DNA of 64,000 nt from Escherichia coli (GTDB lineage: Bacteria > Pseudomonadota > Gammaproteobacteria > Enterobacterales > Enterobacteriaceae). The translations under genes were made by a program, and so were the position numbers. The notes beneath the pieces are model-generated. The model searched no databases, was not told the origin of the DNA, and was given only the letters and a program-made list of their open reading frames with translations. Every line of letters starts with the position of its first letter. The stretch's first letter is position 1. Below are positions 1-40,676 of the stretch, piece after piece. The stretch lies in assembly GCF_002854065.1 (NCBI RefSeq), contig NZ_CP024147.1, one strand, 5' to 3'.

Positions 1-803
<803 letters not shown>

Positions 804-823
804 TCAATCGCTCAATGACCTGA

Positions 824-1345
<522 letters not shown>

Positions 1346-1513
1346 GGGTAGAAATTAATCGCAACGCGCAGATTGCGAGCTGCATTCCACGAAATTTGTA
1401 AGGTTGTGAAGATAGCGTTTTTCACCGGAATCAGGTTAACAAATCAGCGCTCTCTCTGTTGCTGAGCATCCGGAGTTATTCGATGGTGATACTCCAATTA
1501 CAGAGGATGTTTT

Positions 1514-1981
1514 ATGGACACTACCCTTCCCTTTCTAATTTTGTACGCTTGTTTATCAGCCCTACTTTTTTTCTGGGATGCAAAGCATGGCTTGTTACCT
1601 GACAGATTTACGTGCCCGTTACTCTGGTCAGGTCTTTTGTTCTATCAAGTTTGTCATCCTGATGGTTTAGCCGATGCGTTATGGGGGGCAATTATTGGTT
1701 ACGGCACATTCGCTGTCATTTACTGGGGGTATCGCATACTGCGCCATAAAGAAGGATTAGGCTATGGTGATGTGAAGTTTCTCGCCGCCCTTGGCGCCTG
1801 GCATTCATGGGCCTTCTTACCACGACTGGTTTTCCTTGCTGCCTCATTCGCTTGCGGAGCCGTAGTTATTGGTCTGCTCATGAGAGGAAAAGAATCATTA
1901 AAAAACCCGCTGCCTTTTGGGCCATTTCTGGCGGCTGCGGGTTTCGTTATAGGCTGGGATAGTTTGCTGATAGGCCGTTAA
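1514..1981 (+). CDS. gspO: Short A24-family prepilin peptidase-like membrane protein (155 aa)
   Basis: ORF track 155 aa with multiple hydrophobic segments and LLPD and [16 protein letters not shown] motifs typical of the prepilin peptidase aspartyl protease domain; RBS gagga upstream; lies between rpsJ and bfr where K-12 carries the gsp cluster ending in gspO. Symbol is by position and similarity only. Confidence 0.7.
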
Positions 1982-2454
1982 TCTTTAACTTTAATTTGTG
2001 ATTGCAGGTAATTTTGTAGGTCGATTTTACCGATGAGATCCAGTTCAGTTTCGAGCCAGTCGATATGACCTTCTTCATCAGCAAGGATCTCGATCATCAT
2101 ATCGCGGCTAACATAGTCATGAACGCTGTCGGCATATGCGATAGCCTCACGCAGATCCTTCGCGCCTTCCAGCTCTAATCGCAGGTCGGATTGCAGCATC
2201 TCTTCGACATCTTCACCAATCCCCAGTTTGCCTAAATCCTGTAAGTTGGGGACTCCTTCTAAAAACAAAATACGCTCGATATACTTATCAGCGTGTTTCA
2301 TCTCATCGATGGATTCATGGTATTCAACGTCATTGAGACGCATCAGCCCCCAGTTTTTAAACATCCGGGCATGGAGAAAATACTGATTGATTGCGACAAG
2401 CTCATTTCCCAATAGTTTATTGAGATAATTTATGATTTTAACATCACCTTTCAT
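1978..2454 (-). CDS. bfr: Bacterioferritin
   Basis: ORF track 158 aa [37 protein letters not shown]... Confidence 0.95.
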
Positions 2455-4158: not shown

Positions 4159-6285
<2,127 letters not shown>

Positions 6286-32132: not shown

Positions 32133-32141
32133 CCTGTATCG
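32133..32141. repeat. Left copy of 9-bp IS1 target-site duplication (CCTGTATCG)
   Basis: Identical 9-mer directly abuts both IS1 termini. Confidence 0.9.
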
Positions 32142-32156
32142 GGTAATGACTCCAAC

Positions 32157-32660
32157 TTATTGATAGTGTTTTATGTTCAGATAATGCCCGATGACTTTGT
32201 CATGCAGCTCCACCGATTTTGAGAACGACAGCGACTTCCGTCCCAGCCGTGCCAGGTGCTGCCTCAGATTCAGGTTATGCCGCTCAATTCGCTGCGTATA
32301 TCGCTTGCTGATTACGTGCAGCTTTCCCTTCAGGCGGGATTCATACAGCGGCCAGCCATCCGTCATCCATATCACCACGTCAAAGGGTGACAGCAGGCTC
32401 ATAAGACGCCCCAGCGTCGCCATAGTGCGTTCACCGAATACGTGCGCAACAACCGTCTTCCGGAGCCTGTCATACGCGTAAAACAGCCAGCGCTGGCGCG
32501 ATTTAGCCCCGACGTATCCCCACTGTTCGTCCATTTCCGCGCAGACGATGACGTCACTGCCCGGCTGTATGCGCGAGGTTACCGACTGCGGCCTGAGTTT
32601 TTTAAATGGCGGAAAATCGTGTTGAGGCCAACGCCCATAATGCGGGCGGTTGCCCGGCAT
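32157..32660 (-). CDS. insB: IS1 transposase InsB (expressed as InsAB' fusion by -1 frameshift)
   Basis: ORF track 167 aa [16 protein letters not shown]...KHYQ matches IS1 InsB. Confidence 0.93.
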
Positions 32661-32854
32661 CCAACGCCATTCATGGCCATATCAATGATTTTCTGGTGCG
32701 TACCGGGTTGAGAAGCGGTGTAAGTGAACTGCAGTTGCCATGTTTTACGGCAGTGAGAGCAGAGATAGCGCTGATGTCCGGCAGTGCTTTTGCCGTTACG
32801 CACCACCCCGTCAGTAGCTGAACAGGAGGGACAGCTGATAGAAACAGAAGCCAC
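32579..32854 (-). CDS. insA: IS1 InsA (transposition inhibitor / N-terminal part of transposase)
   Basis: ORF track 91 aa [42 protein letters not shown]...; A6C slippery motif (plus gtttttt 32597-32603) in the insA/insB overlap. Confidence 0.93.
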
Positions 32855-32909
32855 TGGAGCACCTCAAAAACACCATCATACACTAAATCAGTAAGTTGGC
32901 AGCATCACC

Positions 32910-32918
32910 CCTGTATCG
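32910..32918. repeat. Right copy of 9-bp IS1 target-site duplication (CCTGTATCG)
   Basis: Identical to 32133-32141. Confidence 0.9.
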
Positions 32919-32992: not shown

Positions 32993-33160
32993 ATGAACAA
33001 ATTTATTAAAGTTGCACTGGTAGGTGCAGTACTGGCTACGTTAACTGCATGTACTGGTCATATTGAAAACCGTGATAAGAACTGCTCTTACGACTACCTG
33101 CTGCACCCAGCAATTTCTATTTCTAAAATCATTGGCGGTTGCGGTCCTACTGCACAGTAA
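32993..33160 (+). CDS. yhfL: Small lipoprotein YhfL (55 aa)
   Basis: Manual translation MNKFIKVALVGAVLATLTACTGHIENRDKNCSYDYLLHPAISISKIIGGCGPTAQ with lipobox LTAC; not in ORF track because shorter than 60 aa. Confidence 0.75.
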   Translation: MNKFIKVALVGAVLATLTACTGHIENRDKNCSYDYLLHPAISISKIIGGCGPTAQ

Positions 33161-33201
33161 GTCTCTGACAGAAATCAGCTAACACCGGTTTAATTGCCCG
33201 A

Positions 33202-33236
33202 CGCCCTCTGGATTTTCCGAGGGCGTATTTGTTTCT
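33202..33236 (+). terminator. Rho-independent terminator after yhfL
   Basis: cgccctc...gagggcg stem followed by tatttgtttct. Confidence 0.55.
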
Positions 33237-33266
33237 GCATTCTTTTCGAAAACATCATTCACAAGA

Positions 33267-34352
33267 TTAAATACTGGCAATACTCTCACGCAAAATCCGC
33301 AGCACCGTCTCTTCACCGCTGCGATTCGGGTTAATGCGAATCGCACAATGTTCGAGTTGCGGATTCGCCTGGCGGAACGTTCCGGAAAGGCGATAAAAGA
33401 GCGGCGGGATTTCATATTTCGACTCTGCACCGACCGGGTAAGGCAACGCGCCACGCTTTTGCGCTTCTTCCAGCACCCTGGCGGCAATCGGCTGATGAAA
33501 CTCGACAATCAACACCTTCGACTGCGCATTGGCAATGACGGCGCTTTTCACTTCCGGCACTGCACCACCGTTGAGCAAAGCCAGCAACCGTTCAGATACC
33601 CCTGCCTGCACCGCGTGCATCACTGGCGCGAACACCAGCCCACGCAACACTTCCAGCGCCTGTGAGCCCTGGATCTGGCTGCCGCCGGAGTAAAGCGTGG
33701 CGCGAATCCGACTAATAACATCGGCATCGCCAACCACTGCACCAACGCCCTCCGGCCCAAACAGCTTGAAGCAGGAGAATGTCGAGACATTCGCGCCGCA
33801 TTCACAGCCGATTCGCGCCACCTTCATCACCGCATAGTTGTCATCGGTTAACGCTGGAACACCTGCCGCGCGCAACGTTGCCAGCACATCTGCCAGCACA
33901 TAGCTGTCCTGCGGCTGCTGGCGCGTATGCTGCACCAGCGCGGCATCAGGTTGTTGCTCGTCGACGACCTGCTTCAGTGCCGACAGGGCATTGAAATCAG
34001 CAGTAATAAGCGTCAGCCCCATCTGCTCAATAATAACCCGTGTCGTTGGGTAAACAGGCGCGTCATGCACCAGAAGACGCTGCCCCGGTTTGAGCAAAGC
34101 CGCCAGCCCGGCGCGAATCGCGCCAGTCCCCGCGCCCTGCACCAGCGCCGCCGCTGGTGCATGAAACGCATCTGCCAGCACCTGCTCCACCCGCTGGGTA
34201 ATGCGCGGTTGATTCAACCCTGGAGTTAACCCTAAATCACCGCCAGTAAGAAACTCGCTGCCGGGGAAATGGCGGCAGATGGTGTCCACCAGCGCAAACT
34301 GCTTTTGCTGCGCTTCATTAAGCGTCAGGCTTTGCAGAGGAAACGTCTTCAT
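33267..34352 (-). CDS. yhfS: Putative PLP-dependent enzyme YhfS
   Basis: ORF track 361 aa; last gene of the yhfZ-yhfS cluster. Confidence 0.85.
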   Translation of the reverse strand: MKTFPLQSLTLNEAQQKQFALVDTICRHFPGSEFLTGGDLGLTPGLNQPRITQRVEQVLADAFHAPAAALVQGAGTGAIRAGLAALLKPGQRLLVHDAPVYPTTRVIIEQMGLTLITADFNALSALKQVVDEQQPDAALVQHTRQQPQDSYVLADVLATLRAAGVPALTDDNYAVMKVARIGCECGANVSTFSCFKLFGPEGVGAVVGDADVISRIRATLYSGGSQIQGSQALEVLRGLVFAPVMHAVQAGVSERLLALLNGGAVPEVKSAVIANAQSKVLIVEFHQPIAARVLEEAQKRGALPYPVGAESKYEIPPLFYRLSGTFRQANPQLEHCAIRINPNRSGEETVLRILRESIASI

Positions 34353-34363
34353 AGGTGCATTCC

Positions 34364-35668
34364 TTAAGCCGGAATAAACAGGCCAAACCAGTAAAGAACA
34401 TTCAGCAGGATGCCGGTGATCATTACTGCCACGACCGGTGCCGCCATTTTCTGTACCGGACGGCCCAGGGATTCGTTGAGGAAGTAAATGGCAACCGCGA
34501 TAGAGAATCCGGTATAACCCGCCATCTTAATTGCTGCGAAAATCGAACCGACCAGCAGCGCCACTTCCATCAGCATATTCATGGCGTTACGGATGTTATC
34601 CGACGCATTACGCACCGACGGGTAGCGTCCCAGCCATTTGCCGATAGAACGAAGCAGCAAGACTTCCGCCGAAATAACCACTGCGCCTAATACCGCTGCA
34701 ACCATCGGATTCGGCGAGAGATAGCCCACCGCATAAACAAAGGTAAAGCCCGCAACTGCATACACACCCGTTGCTAAGGCGGTGGTGGCAATCAACGGTA
34801 CAAAACCCAGCCCGCGCATAAATTCTGCCAGTGCCGCCTGGTTGATCAGCGTTTGCGATTGTTCCGGCGTTACGCCTGCGGAATATGCTTTCTCAAGGGT
34901 GAAGATCGACACTTCACTGCCAGCAAAAATCTTCATGCTGGCAACGGCGGCAATCAGCGCCCCTACAATAGCGATATACGGTAAGTTTTTGATAATCCGC
35001 GACGTGCGTTCTTCAAACACCGAAAGCCCGCTGGCATCGATGTCATTTTCATCACGATGACGCAGGTCGTGAGTTATCGCGATCCCCAGCAGCATCACCA
35101 TGCCAATAAAGATTTCGATGGATTCAGGGTTAAGATGTGGGAAATAGCGCACGACTACCACACGGGTCATCAGAACAACCACGGCGGCGACCAGACTTTG
35201 CTTCCAGCCAAACTGGTAGAAAATCGCCACCAGCGGGAACAGTGCAAAAGCAGAAACCACCGGCGAGCTTAATTCCCCGAGGCTACCTAATACATCCACC
35301 GGCAGCGCGGTCAGCAGCTGGTTTACTGGCAACAGGCAAGTAAGGATCAACACGCCCCAGATAGCGCCAAGACCAAACGCCATCAGGCTGTTTATCGCCA
35401 GTACGCCGAGGATATCGGTAGGAAGAAAGAGTAACCATGCGTTTAGCAGCCCGGTTTTCAGGGTAAAAGAGATCCCCACCGAGGCCACAAAACCAATGCT
35501 CAGACCAAAAGCGATACTCCCCGCCTCGCGACGGTTCATATAGCCTTCAATCAGTTGCGGCAGGATCGGGCGGATGCCGTCATGAAAAACAGCCGCCGAG
35601 CGATGCGCCAGAAGCGATGTCATACCCGTCAGGCACGCCACCACGATAATCTGAATATACAGATCCAT
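34364..35668 (-). CDS. yhfT: Inner-membrane transporter-like protein YhfT
   Basis: ORF track 434 aa, highly hydrophobic multi-TM protein. Confidence 0.85.
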   Translation of the reverse strand: MDLYIQIIVVACLTGMTSLLAHRSAAVFHDGIRPILPQLIEGYMNRREAGSIAFGLSIGFVASVGISFTLKTGLLNAWLLFLPTDILGVLAINSLMAFGLGAIWGVLILTCLLPVNQLLTALPVDVLGSLGELSSPVVSAFALFPLVAIFYQFGWKQSLVAAVVVLMTRVVVVRYFPHLNPESIEIFIGMVMLLGIAITHDLRHRDENDIDASGLSVFEERTSRIIKNLPYIAIVGALIAAVASMKIFAGSEVSIFTLEKAYSAGVTPEQSQTLINQAALAEFMRGLGFVPLIATTALATGVYAVAGFTFVYAVGYLSPNPMVAAVLGAVVISAEVLLLRSIGKWLGRYPSVRNASDNIRNAMNMLMEVALLVGSIFAAIKMAGYTGFSIAVAIYFLNESLGRPVQKMAAPVVAVMITGILLNVLYWFGLFIPA

Positions 35669-35679
35669 AGTCGTGCCTT

Positions 35680-36033
35680 TTATTTCAGATGGTTAATCAG
35701 CATCGGAATCGCGTGTTCGACGTGCTCAACGGAAAGGCCAAACGCCACTTTTCCTTCAGCGATCATTTTGGCGATATGCTCGTCTTTCGCTTTAATGCCT
35801 GGTTTGGCAATGGTGCAACTTTTGTTATAGCCAATCACCGCGATGGCAATCGACAATGCCGCGCCCGCACCGGTATTACACGCGCCGATGTAATAATCCA
35901 GTTGCCCGGATTTCACCTTCATTGCCGCTTCCATGTCGTTGTGAATGAAAACTTCAAAACAGCCAGGAGCCGTCGCTTCAATAGTTTTTTTAATCTGCTC
36001 ACGCTGTAAGCCTGCAACGCCAATCTTTTTCAT
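35680..36033 (-). CDS. yhfU: Uncharacterized protein YhfU (117 aa from MKKIGVAG)
   Basis: ORF track 130 aa; start chosen at internal Met to avoid overlap with php; alternative start 36072. Confidence 0.8.
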   Translation of the reverse strand: MKKIGVAGLQREQIKKTIEATAPGCFEVFIHNDMEAAMKVKSGQLDYYIGACNTGAGAALSIAIAVIGYNKSCTIAKPGIKAKDEHIAKMIAEGKVAFGLSVEHVEHAIPMLINHLK

Positions 36034-36043
36034 GAGTCTGTCC

Positions 36044-36922
36044 TTATTGGAAAAATTGAGAGGGATTTTCACGTAACATCACATCCACATCGGCCTGACT
36101 GAATCCTGACTGGCGCAATTGCGGAATAAAGGTGGTTAGTAAATAGTCATAGCCATAACCACCGTTGGCTTTTAAATGGGAGCGGCGCGTAATATCCATC
36201 GACAGCATGACGCGGTTCAGCAACCCACGGTCGCGTAGCGCATGAAGCATCGCAATACGCTTTTCGTCCGGGTAGTAACTGTTCTTACCAATGGTGTCGA
36301 ACTGCACATACGCGCCGAGATCGATCATCTTCAAAATGTTGTCGAGGTTGTCTTTCAGATCGCAGTGACCAACGGTGACGCGCGAAAGATCAACTCCGTG
36401 GGCTTGCAACAAAGCCAGTTGCTCCAGCCCCATCGTGCTGAACGACGTATGCGTGGAGATCGGGCGTCCGGTCTGGTTATGTGCCAGCGCGGCGGCAATA
36501 AATACCTTCTCTTCCAGCGGCGTAATCTTCCCTTCGCTGGAGCCGATCTCCGCGATGATCCCGGCTTTCAGTTCCGTGCCATCGATACCCTGCTCAATTT
36601 CATCGACCATCTCCTGCGCCAGTTCCTGCACGCTGCGGGTCGCCACATGTTCCGGGAAAAACGCGTCCTGGTAATAACCGGTACAGGCCACCACGTTGAT
36701 CCCCGTCTCGCGCATTACATCGAGCATAAATTGCGCATTGCGCCCCATGTAACGGTTGGTCATCTCAATCACATTACGCACGCCCCGGGCCATCAGGTCG
36801 TTCATCTCCTGGCAAATGAACGAATACTGATCAAGGCGGCAGTCCACGTTGTTTTTAAAGCCGGAGAGATCAATATGCAGATGCTCATGGGCGAGGGTGT
36901 AACCCGTCGGATCAAAACTCAT
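36044..36922 (-). CDS. php: Phosphotriesterase homology protein (amidohydrolase superfamily)
   Basis: ORF track 292 aa [32 protein letters not shown]... with metal-binding HxH motif. Confidence 0.9.
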
Positions 36923-38145
36923 AGGGTGTCTCCTGCAAACCGGAGGGAGGAAAGAAAAGAGCGACCATTTTGTGGCGGTGGCGCACGGAAAAATTCACAC
37001 ACGGTAGCCCCCACATCAGAAAGCGTGGTGCGCACACCGATCTGCGTAGTGACCAGCCCTTGCTGATAAACCAGCACTGGCACCACTTCACGGGTATGGT
37101 GGCTGTGACCAATGGTCGGATCGTTACCGTGATCCGCCATCACGACCAGGCAATCATCTGGCTGCATCGCCTCGACAAGCCGGGCAAGATTACGGTCAAC
37201 GACCTGCAAACGTTCGGCATAACTTGCGACGTCTTCTGCGTGACCAGCGAGGTCGGTTTCCTGAATGTTGGTGCAAATAAACGCTGTCTGATGGGTGATA
37301 AATTCGTCGAGGGTGATATCCATAATCCGCTGGCTATCCACCAGATTTTGCCAGCTCACGCCATAAGGATTGTTGACGATATCTGCCACCTTACCCACCA
37401 GCACGGTTGGCACGCCTGCTTCATACAGTTTTTGTGGCACCTGCACTTTTTCATCGACGCCATAGCCCATATGCACGACCTGGAAACCGTTGTCATAAGC
37501 GCCAGAACGCGGCGCATTAATACCAATAAAGCGCCCTTCTTTGCTTTCTGCGGCATCGAGAATACGCTGACTGTCGGTTAACAGGCCGCCAAATGTAATG
37601 ACCCGACCGACCTGTACCTGGTCACGCACGATACGACCAATTTTGATTGCGTCGTCAAAAGAGATCACAGAGAGATTGGCGGTAATGTTATAGACTTGGC
37701 CTAAATCCGCCTCGAGATTATCGCCAATCGCAACCGCCTGATTGACTCACAGAAATTGCAGTTCATCGCCACGGCGCTCCACCTGCCAACCGGCGGATAC
37801 TAATGCCTGCTCAACACGGTCAATCACATCGCGAAAGGGCATCCGCAGCGGCGGTAACGGGCGCGTGCCTAAAATTTCCTGATGCCCCATAAAGGTATCG
37901 CCACCTTCATGTTGCAGCTCTGCCACACCCCAGGTTGCGGAGTCTGACGGCTGCATATCACCTGGCGCATAACCCAATGCGTTGATTAGCCCCAGCTTCT
38001 CCAGCGTTGGTAGCTGCAAATGCGGCAGCTGGCTCAGGATGTGACCACAGGTATTCGCTCCGGCATCTTGCGGGCGCACCAGCGTGACATCTTTCATTGC
38101 ACCTACGCCAAAGCTATCAATCACTAACACCACAAATCGCGCCAT
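36919..38145 (-). pseudogene. yhfW: yhfW (phosphopentomutase-like metalloenzyme) interrupted by an in-frame TGA at 37747-37749
   Basis: ORF track gives a 132-aa N-terminal piece (37747-38145) and a 249-aa C-terminal piece (36919-37668); manual translation shows both are in the same frame with 26 sense codons between them, so a single TGA splits a 408-codon gene. Confidence 0.8.
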
Positions 38146-39308
38146 TACGCCTCCAGAGAGTTTCCAAGACTGTCATAACGACCGACAATTTCCGGTTCGC
38201 CACGCTGAATACCCGATACCAACACCACATCACTGCGGGTAACAAAAATCTGCGTACGAAAACAGAACACTACGGCACTACTCACCGGAAACTCGCCTGC
38301 TAACGGCAGGTAATAGTCGATACTGCTGTCATCCACAGTTTTGAGATTTGTTTCAGTAATCTTTTGATTTTCTGGCGTAAACACCAGCGCATGTTGCGCA
38401 TGACCACGACGGTAATAACCGCCGCCGTAGCAGTAGCTGTCGCCACGGAAATGGTGGGAAATTTCACTTAACCAAAGCATCGCGATACGTTCAGGCTGAT
38501 CGCCCTGCTGGTTTGCCGGAATTGTGCCCGTCAGCGCATGACCGGGTTCGGCATGAGTCACACCGTATTGCGCCAGCAATGGCAACGAAGTGCAGCTGGT
38601 CGCAGAAGGTGCGTTCAGTTGCTCAATCGCAATACCAGATTTCGCCAGTTGATCCCGTGCCTGTATCAGCGTGTGAAGATTCGGTGTCGGCAAAACTTTC
38701 CCGGCAGCCTCATCCCAAAGCAGGCAAGGGAAATGGGTTAGTCCGGCTAAATGCAGCCCCGGCAGTTTCTTAATTTCAGCAACCACCTCGTGCAGCGAAT
38801 GCTGTACAAAACCGCTCTCCTGCCCCGGATAAAGAAAATCATCGTCGCTATAAACTTTGAGCAGCACAGACTGGATTCGCCCGGCTTTCACCGCCGCCGC
38901 AGAAACTTCCCGCGCTTTGTCGAGAGTAAACACGGTGATGACGTCGGTGCCCTGTTCAACGGCGTCAGCAACCTGATGACAAGGGATTTGTACCAGATGC
39001 CCCTGATGCGCCACCGGCAAACCAGCGCGGCGCATGACTCGCGCCTCTTTGTAATCCACCGCCACAATGCCGCTGTAGCCCAACGCCAGCAGTTTTTCCG
39101 CCAGCCATGGGTTACGACCGAATTGTTTGGTCATCAGATACAGTTCAATGCCGTAAAGCCGCGCCGTCTCAATCTGCCGCTTACCGTTTTCCAGTATCTG
39201 ATCCACGTCGATCACCCAGCTGTCCGGGGCGATCTTGCCCTGCTGCCACAGACTTAAAGCGGCGGAAATCAGCGCCGGGTTCTGGCGTTTCAATGCTTCT
39301 ACAAACAT
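38145..39308 (-). CDS. yhfX: Alanine-racemase-fold (fold type III PLP) protein YhfX
   Basis: ORF track 387 aa [42 protein letters not shown]... Confidence 0.85.
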
Positions 39309-39770: not shown

Positions 39771-40676
39771 TTAATAACTCGGTTCCTGTTCCCCACTCAC
39801 CACCCGTTGTTGATGGGCGAGCAGGGCGTGTTTATCTACAACGGCACGCAGCAGTTGTTGCATTGGGTAATCATCGACTCGCGTCAGGACCACGGCTTCG
39901 GTGGCCTGTAAAAATCGCGGATCGTCTGTGAGCGGCGTCGCCTCTAATCCCAGCATGGTCAGTTCGTTTTCCGCCACCACGTTCCAGATAACCGCATCAA
40001 CATCGCCTTTAACAATGCGTTGTAAACTCTCGTGATAAGAGAGATCGACTCGTTCCACATCACTACCGCCAAAAAAGACATCAGTCATGATTTTCTGATC
40101 CGCCGAACGGTTATCCAGCCCCACGCGCTTCACGTTTGCGGACTCGCCTTTACGGCAAATCAACTGGTGCTCGCCAACGTAGGTGTGCGGCCCCAACTCC
40201 AGCGCGAGGCATAACCCTTTTTGCGTGAGATAACTTTCCGCCGCCAGTCGGGAAACCACCGCCATGTCATACACGCCGTTAAGTAAACACTCCACGCGAA
40301 TATCCGCGCCGCGCATATGCGCATAGTAAAAAGGAATGCCATCAAACTGGGCTTTCAATCCGCTCGCTAAACCTTCGTACAAGCGGGTATAGGGCAAAGG
40401 CATCGCACATACCACGTTGTTGATATCCACATGACTCAGCAATGCTTTGTTATCCATCTCGACCAGATAACTGCCATTGCGCCCACGGCGTTCAATCCGT
40501 ATCGCTCCGCTTGATTCCAGCGTTTTCAACGCGGCCTGCGTCAGGCCAACGGATGAACGGCATTCAGTGGCCAGTTCATCTATAGTTTTCAATCGGTTAC
40601 CGCACTTTTCACCCAACAAATAACGGGCCAGCGTCGTGATGACGACGCCTTCTTTTTTGATAAACGTTCGACGCAT
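39771..40676 (-). CDS. yhfZ: Putative regulator YhfZ (N-terminal HTH-like region)
   Basis: ORF track 301 aa; first gene of the cluster by position. Confidence 0.85.
   Translation of the reverse strand: MRRTFIKKEGVVITTLARYLLGEKCGNRLKTIDELATECRSSVGLTQAALKTLESSGAIRIERRGRNGSYLVEMDNKALLSHVDINNVVCAMPLPYTRLYEGLASGLKAQFDGIPFYYAHMRGADIRVECLLNGVYDMAVVSRLAAESYLTQKGLCLALELGPHTYVGEHQLICRKGESANVKRVGLDNRSADQKIMTDVFFGGSDVERVDLSYHESLQRIVKGDVDAVIWNVVAENELTMLGLEATPLTDDPRFLQATEAVVLTRVDDYPMQQLLRAVVDKHALLAHQQRVVSGEQEPSY

Follow-up and report, generated by a model that had tools for sequence, protein, structure and literature searches.

The window analysed here is a stretch of 64,000 nt of Escherichia coli DNA (contig NZ_CP024147.1) in which yhfW occupies positions 36919..38145 of the minus strand, with 408 codons and a natural TGA stop. 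When this interval was translated in one frame, its 409 codons contained exactly one internal stop, at codon 133, besides the terminal TGA. The internal stop (37749..37747, minus strand) lies in the minus-strand reading GAA CTG CAA TTT CTG TGA GTC AAT CAG and divides the gene into two entries of the ORF list: an N-terminal remnant of 132 aa (coding positions 37750..38145, or 37747..38145 with the stop, minus strand) and a C-terminal ORF of 249 aa that starts with a GTG at codon 160 (36919..37668, minus strand). The original prediction described two ORFs in one frame, 26 sense codons apart, and this is the arrangement that we find, with codons 134–159 as the separating segment. At its 5′ end, yhfW is joined to yhfX by a TAATG overlap of the yhfX stop and the yhfW start (38145..38147, minus strand; GAGGCGTAATGGCG). 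At its 3′ end, the yhfW stop and the php start form an ATGA overlap (36919..36922, minus strand; GCAGGAGACACCCTATGAGT), which is a translational-coupling arrangement, and 7 nt before its ATG php additionally carries an AGGAG of its own.

The genes downstream of yhfW in the predicted operon span 33267..36922 on the minus strand and comprise php (36044..36922), yhfU (354 nt inside the ORF 35680..36072), yhfT (34364..35668) and yhfS (33267..34352), all of them intact. It had been claimed that the rest of the cluster is undamaged, and the order of php, yhfU, yhfT and yhfS and their lengths are indeed those of the RefSeq annotation of the same haplotype; the other cluster genes of the window are also at full length, with no secondary decay. 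A published operon table lists php, yhfS, yhfT, yhfU, yhfW and yhfX as one operon (PMC4448311). In K-12-like genomes, the fructoselysine operon frlABCDR sits between yhfL and yhfS (30-kb versus 25-kb span); it is absent here, where yhfS is followed directly by yhfL (32993..33267), as in the genomes 100416, CUWW06 and FDAARGOS_944. The cysG–yhfL spacer of the window contains a complete 768-bp IS1 (32142..32909), with the genes InsA (32579..32854, minus strand) and InsB′ (32157..32660, minus strand), flanked by the 9-bp target-site duplication CCTGTATCG at 32133..32141 and 32910..32918. This IS1 is absent at the same site from CUWW06, 100416 and the public contigs L011 and L012, so it represents a strain-specific and very recent insertion. 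One metagenome contig (L016; ENA ERZ27288250 k119_260069, 1..2300) joins pncC–recA directly to yhfZ and was considered as a possible second genomic location of the cluster. This candidate was rejected, since the junction is missing from every complete E. coli genome and the two parts meet in multi-copy sequence; the contig is therefore probably chimeric.

Alignment with intact yhfW alleles, including that of K-12, identified the replaced sense codon as TGG (Trp133). TGG stands at codon 133 in all intact alleles examined, namely those of XJ34 (2 nt from the window yhfW), TUM13936 (11 nt), 23S01245-7 (12 nt), O145 RM9872 (13 nt) and K-12 W3110 (36 nt). The change, hereafter W133*, is a G-to-A transition of gene nucleotide 399 (window position 37747) that by itself converts TGG to TGA, in agreement with the proposed point nonsense mutation, and the absence of a frameshift was borne out by zero indels across 1227 nt relative to the intact alleles. 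The second yhfW difference between XJ34 and the window (nucleotide 261) is private to XJ34, and the nonsense mutation is therefore the sole derived change in the window gene. Over 7.2 kb, XJ34, the closest relative with an intact yhfW, differs from the window at 49 sites, with 46 of them in trpS–yhfZ and only 3 in the 6-kb stretch that runs from yhfY into the beginning of yhfS, and the protein accessions of Php, YhfU, YhfT and YhfS are identical in XJ34, 100416 and CUWW06. Inactivation had been suggested to be recent; the single derived change in yhfW, the 3 sites that separate the window from XJ34 in 6 kb and the identical downstream proteins all point the same way. Within yhfZ (window 39771..40676; XJ34 locus 919..1204), ∼40 substitutions are concentrated in 290 bp between haplotypes that are otherwise near-identical, and this dense tract looks like a short recombination import. 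The yhfW locus displays all four properties of a unitary, non-processed pseudogene created by nonsense mutation, one of them being an intact orthologue at the same locus, which is provided by XJ34, TUM13936, O145 and K-12 (same operon position, 408 codons). The others are a stop derived from a sense codon in an otherwise preserved frame, a truncated product that is predicted to lack functionally required residues, and a stop that recurs in independent assemblies and shows no sign of recoding. Among complete genomes, 5072 of 5426 match yhfW over at least 80% of its length.

The allele is shared by other strains. Two complete RefSeq genomes, 100416 (human stool, Gambia) and CUWW06 (wastewater, Thailand), contain a yhfW that is identical to that of the window over all 1227 nt, including the TGA. 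In both genomes, RefSeq PGAP annotates the gene as phosphopentomutase and flags it ‘pseudo, internal stop’ (ACU5SM_RS01875 in 100416 and ACNHKQ_RS21025 in CUWW06), so the pseudogene status of this allele is already on record in RefSeq. BLAST comparisons over 41 kb counted 3 SNPs between the window and CUWW06 and 9 between the window and 100416, plus one IS1; with so few SNPs and the one IS1 difference, the window strain is, on this evidence, a third member of one clone with CUWW06 and 100416. The exact 132-aa fragment was found on 187 public contigs, a few of which carry an independent TAG allele, and the exact 249-aa fragment on 164, while the same haplotype with an intact Trp133 was found on 106. 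Among the contigs that were read, 22 of 24 had the window haplotype, including SRA-run and metagenome assemblies, with 99.97–100% identity over 8–11 kb. Judged from these genomes and contigs, W133* is not private to this isolate and is fixed in a clone that has been sampled on three continents and is represented by well over 100 public contigs, and it is shown to have arisen once in the ancestor of that clone, which later spread. One clone member (L013, ERR9384437_38) has a 1-bp gap that splits yhfX (locus 4837..6001) into ORFs of 272 and 111 aa; this may be either real further decay of the operon or an assembly error. The W133* allele can be used as a clonal marker for the lineage, and the correct annotation of the locus merges the two ORFs into one yhfW pseudogene (W133*) in place of two genes.

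A single-base difference from intact alleles is also what a sequencing or assembly error in the window would produce. However, the identical base recurs in the complete genomes from Gambia and Thailand and in numerous assemblies of SRA runs and metagenomes, and the recovery of the same allele from independently assembled genomes rules out a one-off assembly error at the assembly level. UGA also serves as the selenocysteine codon, and the stop in question, being UGA, could be read by programmed recoding of this kind. The ancestral residue, however, is Trp and not Cys or Sec. The 81-nt segment that surrounds the UGA and continues 3′ of it folded no better than shuffled sequences (z = −0.52), with no SECIS-like hairpin 3′ of the codon, and a permissive-threshold Rfam scan of 2 kb returned nothing relevant. 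With no SECIS-like fold and with Trp in the relatives, classification as a selenoprotein was rejected. Across the 5426 complete genomes, 40-mer searches found TGA or TAG at codon 133 in only 4, and the surrounding 81-mer, which was matched in 5047 genomes, was matched exactly with TGA in only 2. Error or recoding thus has, in our estimate, a negligible probability of accounting for the stop.

The protein that the intact gene would encode was assessed by restoring Trp at position 133. The repaired YhfW (408 aa) matches the NCBIfam model NF009049 (PRK12383) over its whole length (1–408 of 408) with 735.5 bits (cut-off 254) and thereby belongs to the YhfW-type phosphopentomutase paralogues that this model describes; the 132-aa fragment corresponds to profile positions 1–132 and the 249-aa fragment to positions 161–408. 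The repaired protein, which falls in the alkaline-phosphatase/metalloenzyme superfamily, is homologous to solved phosphopentomutases (PDB 3m8w, E = 2.5e-30). The motifs recovered in the alignment are GGDT (Thr84), DLAGH (298), DHGND (338) and HHTRE (349), of which Thr84 aligns with the nucleophile Thr of Bacillus cereus phosphopentomutase and the last three align with the metal-ligand motifs of the solved enzymes. The scores against the DeoB equivalog models were under their cut-offs (NF003766, 184 bits with a cut-off of 256; TIGR01696, 144.2 bits with a cut-off of 341.2). By these profile scores, YhfW is a DeoB homologue or paralogue and not a DeoB equivalog, and the name ‘phosphopentomutase’ is applied to it by homology only. 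On the function of yhfW and its operon, the literature yielded only the terms ‘putative mutase’ and ‘uncharacterized protein’, two overexpression or proteomic screens and a remark on a RAPP motif, and a viable Keio deletion of yhfW is listed (PMC7730263). The RAPP motif (Arg-Ala-Pro-Pro) comprises YhfW residues 387–390 (window 36976..36987, minus strand), 19 codons before the stop. According to a 2025 paper, no other protein of the MG1655 proteome contains RAPP, and sequences resembling it are prone to arrest translation (PMC12992588); in the W133* allele, the motif would no longer be reached by ribosomes.

In the W133* allele, translation would end after 132 residues. The remnant retains Asp10 and Thr84 and has none of the C-terminal metal-ligand motifs; with the C-terminal half of the core missing entirely and little of the middle region left, such a product would not form a two-metal active site, and from this truncation we infer a loss of YhfW function. 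The 249-aa ORF represents the C-terminal two thirds of the protein, with the DLAGH, DHGND and HHTRE motifs. A restart at the downstream GTG had been put forward as a check. The only in-frame starts within codons 134–200 are GTG160 and GTG173, and at positions −18 to −4 neither is preceded by a Shine-Dalgarno-like motif. Since GTG160 has no ribosome-binding site before it, the 249-aa ORF is probably translated only when ribosomes read through the TGA, and it would be a by-product of ORF calling and not a second gene product. The same observations bear on the idea of a split gene, in which reinitiation at GTG160 would yield the 249-aa piece alongside the 132-aa piece and the two would assemble into an active enzyme. 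Such an arrangement would fit with two ORFs that are both intact and in frame, with a break that separates the N- and C-terminal conserved blocks and lies in the weakly conserved middle, and with the several independent stops at codons 120–133. However, besides the missing Shine-Dalgarno-like sequences, residues 133–159 would be absent from the assembled protein, PGAP treats the locus as a pseudogene, and the clustering at codons 120–133 reflects sampling by fragment length, as fragments with lengths corresponding to 65, 72, 78 and 89 and a stop at 272 exist too. We therefore regard a functional split gene as extremely improbable. Reference yhfW genes with a stop at this codon and two separately translated products, which would have spoken against the nonsense mutation proposed originally, were not encountered: a stop is present in 4 of 5426 genomes, the copies are annotated as pseudogenes and a second product is unsupported.

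The identity of the lost residue is relevant for what remains of YhfW in a strain with the pseudogene. K-12 has an unusually weak RF2 variant, and readthrough figures that were obtained in K-12 may consequently overestimate those of natural isolates. Trp-tRNA(Trp) competes with RF2 at UGA, and the readthrough measured in a K-12 reporter was ∼2% at 37°C, rising to ∼4% at 25°C, with a dependence on cAMP as well as on temperature (PMC10570021). Since Trp133 is the residue that was lost, its insertion at the UGA would restore wild-type YhfW; a small fraction of ribosomes probably does this, to about a percent of the wild-type protein, and a few percent are possible. A low residual Trp readthrough of the yhfW UGA is likely, and it does not imply selection for readthrough. 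A stronger version of this idea is that the UGA acts as a strong down-regulator (few percent dosage, increasing at low temperature or high cAMP) and that the allele has been kept for that reason. The ancestral Trp, the cAMP- and temperature-dependent readthrough seen in K-12, the frequency of W133* in its haplotype and an independent TGA at the same base in a K-12-like haplotype are all compatible with a tunable allele. They must be set against the independent TAG alleles at codon 133, the nonsense alleles at Gln codons 130 and 272 and the fragments that fit stops at Gln 65, 78, 89, 113 and 121. TAG and Gln-codon stops would not restore the wild-type residue, and the pattern therefore fits plain loss of function. 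In addition, the fold downstream of the stop offers no readthrough-stimulating structure (the z value is that given above), and the base after the stop is G, for which we know of no special readthrough context. Selective maintenance of the UGA as a leaky codon is accordingly an explanation that we consider very unlikely, and we retain plain loss of function as the preferred reading.

Polarity of W133* on the genes from php to yhfS, which was raised in the original prediction, is plausible from the layout of the operon, and php, yhfU, yhfT and yhfS are the candidates for it. The 828 nt of yhfW mRNA 3′ of the stop would be ribosome-free, and this part of the gene includes a C-rich, G-poor stretch at nucleotides 829–906 (33% C and 15% G). 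Rho-dependent termination could lower the expression of php, yhfU, yhfT and yhfS, and the ATGA coupling into php would be lost. No promoter-like site was found inside yhfW. On the transcript that survives, the AGGAG of php should still permit independent initiation.

The stop of the window is one of many lesions in this gene. In 352 of the 5426 complete genomes, yhfW is unmatched. Stops at codon 133 (TGA or TAG) occur on at least four haplotypes, and those outside the window haplotype were read at loci L018 (NZ_CM194533.1), L019 (NZ_CP065613.1), L010, L014 and L015. They comprise a TAG in FDAARGOS_944 and GCA_000805835.1 (37 nt from the window yhfW), a TAG in DRR388109, a TGA in the K-12-like ‘isolate 12’ from Hungary (2 nt from K-12) and a TGA in a mosaic metagenome contig; in isolate 12, K-12-type markers flank the stop, at 15 nt on its upstream side and 51 nt on its downstream side. 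At other codons, the Shigella sonnei fragment (P0003, 129 aa, at least 1000 contigs) ends before Gln130, and in this species the pseudogene state of yhfW (Q130*) appears fixed. The Shigella boydii fragment (P0018, 271 aa, 169 contigs) ends before Gln272 (Q272*), and W120* occurs in several E. coli. The Q130*, Q272* and W120* stops are deduced from the ends of the fragments, and DNA-level reading covers the codon-133 alleles. Frameshift alleles of yhfW also exist, and in PK8261 the yhfW match is interrupted, with 68% coverage in two places. Decay extends to other genes of the operon, as yhfT has a frameshift in O145 RM9872 (L006; one O145 genome looked at) and yhfS has an internal stop in the Dutch environmental isolate 23S01245-7 (L005).

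The recurrence at codon 133 came from a look-up of fragments with a length of 132 aa, and the sample is thus biased to this codon. In yhfW, a transition can create a stop in 32 codons (36 possible transition-nonsense mutations), and for 10 such sites other than codon 133 the expected truncated products were looked up as controls. Eight of the 10 were present in public data (stops at 65, 72, 78, 89, 113, 120, 121 and 130), each on 14–47 contigs apart from Q130* of S. sonnei, which is on at least 1000, with the proviso that some of the control fragments may end at contig ends instead of stops. Direct reading of the sequence showed no Dcm site (CCWGG) at codon 133. The notion that codon 133 is a mutational hotspot or a selected site is unsupported, given the biased look-up, the presence of 8 of the 10 controls, the 4 stops in 5426 genomes and the lack of a Dcm site. 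The simplest reading of these data is that yhfW is a dispensable and repeatedly decaying gene, sampled in such depth that hits are now on record for most of its readily reached nonsense sites, and that codon 133 is not exceptional.

Taken together, yhfW in the window is very probably an ordinary nonsense pseudogene that was formed by one spontaneous G-to-A transition, and nothing that we found contradicts its reading as a pseudogene. That the operon is accessory and dispensable would explain why this loss does no apparent harm. The W133* clone is common (164–187 contigs, versus 106 with the intact codon), so the allele is at least not strongly deleterious, and it may have been under positive selection. 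A stop that is not neutral could reflect loss or strong down-tuning that is advantageous in a niche, or a leaky switch formed by UGA at a Trp codon, with low-level wild-type enzyme that depends on cAMP and temperature. This we hold to be unlikely; if true, an advantageous loss would explain the success of the clone and the repeated stops at codons 120–133, including the fixed Q130* of S. sonnei. As an ordinary pseudogene, yhfW of the window adds to the impression that E. coli and Shigella can do without the yhfZYXW-php-yhfUTS operon and that it is frequently eroded in them, which hints, indirectly, that its substrate is perhaps met only in some niches. The natural W133* strains and an XJ34-like intact sister constitute a ready near-isogenic pair for testing candidate substrates.

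When the locus is compared with known systems, its closest counterparts are the RefSeq pseudogenes of 100416 and CUWW06, which have the same allele and the same flanking genes as the window and differ from it in lacking the IS1 that the window strain carries in the cysG–yhfL spacer. The intact yhfW genes of XJ34 (WP_088375910.1) and K-12 (b3380, WP_000090644.1) likewise comprise 408 codons and belong to the same operon (yhfZ, yhfY, yhfX, yhfW, php, yhfU, yhfT, yhfS); they have TGG at codon 133 and encode the full-length protein, whereas the window has TGA. With the DeoB phosphopentomutase of B. cereus (PPM, 3m8w), YhfW shares the fold family and the N- and C-terminal conserved blocks, and the Thr nucleophile and the DxxxH, DHGND and H motifs are common to both, but YhfW scores under the curated DeoB cut-offs. 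The other nonsense alleles (TAG in FDAARGOS_944, TGA in isolate 12, Q130*, Q272* and W120*) resemble that of the window in being single-base transitions, with the rest of the operon usually intact, and differ from it in being independent events on different haplotypes.
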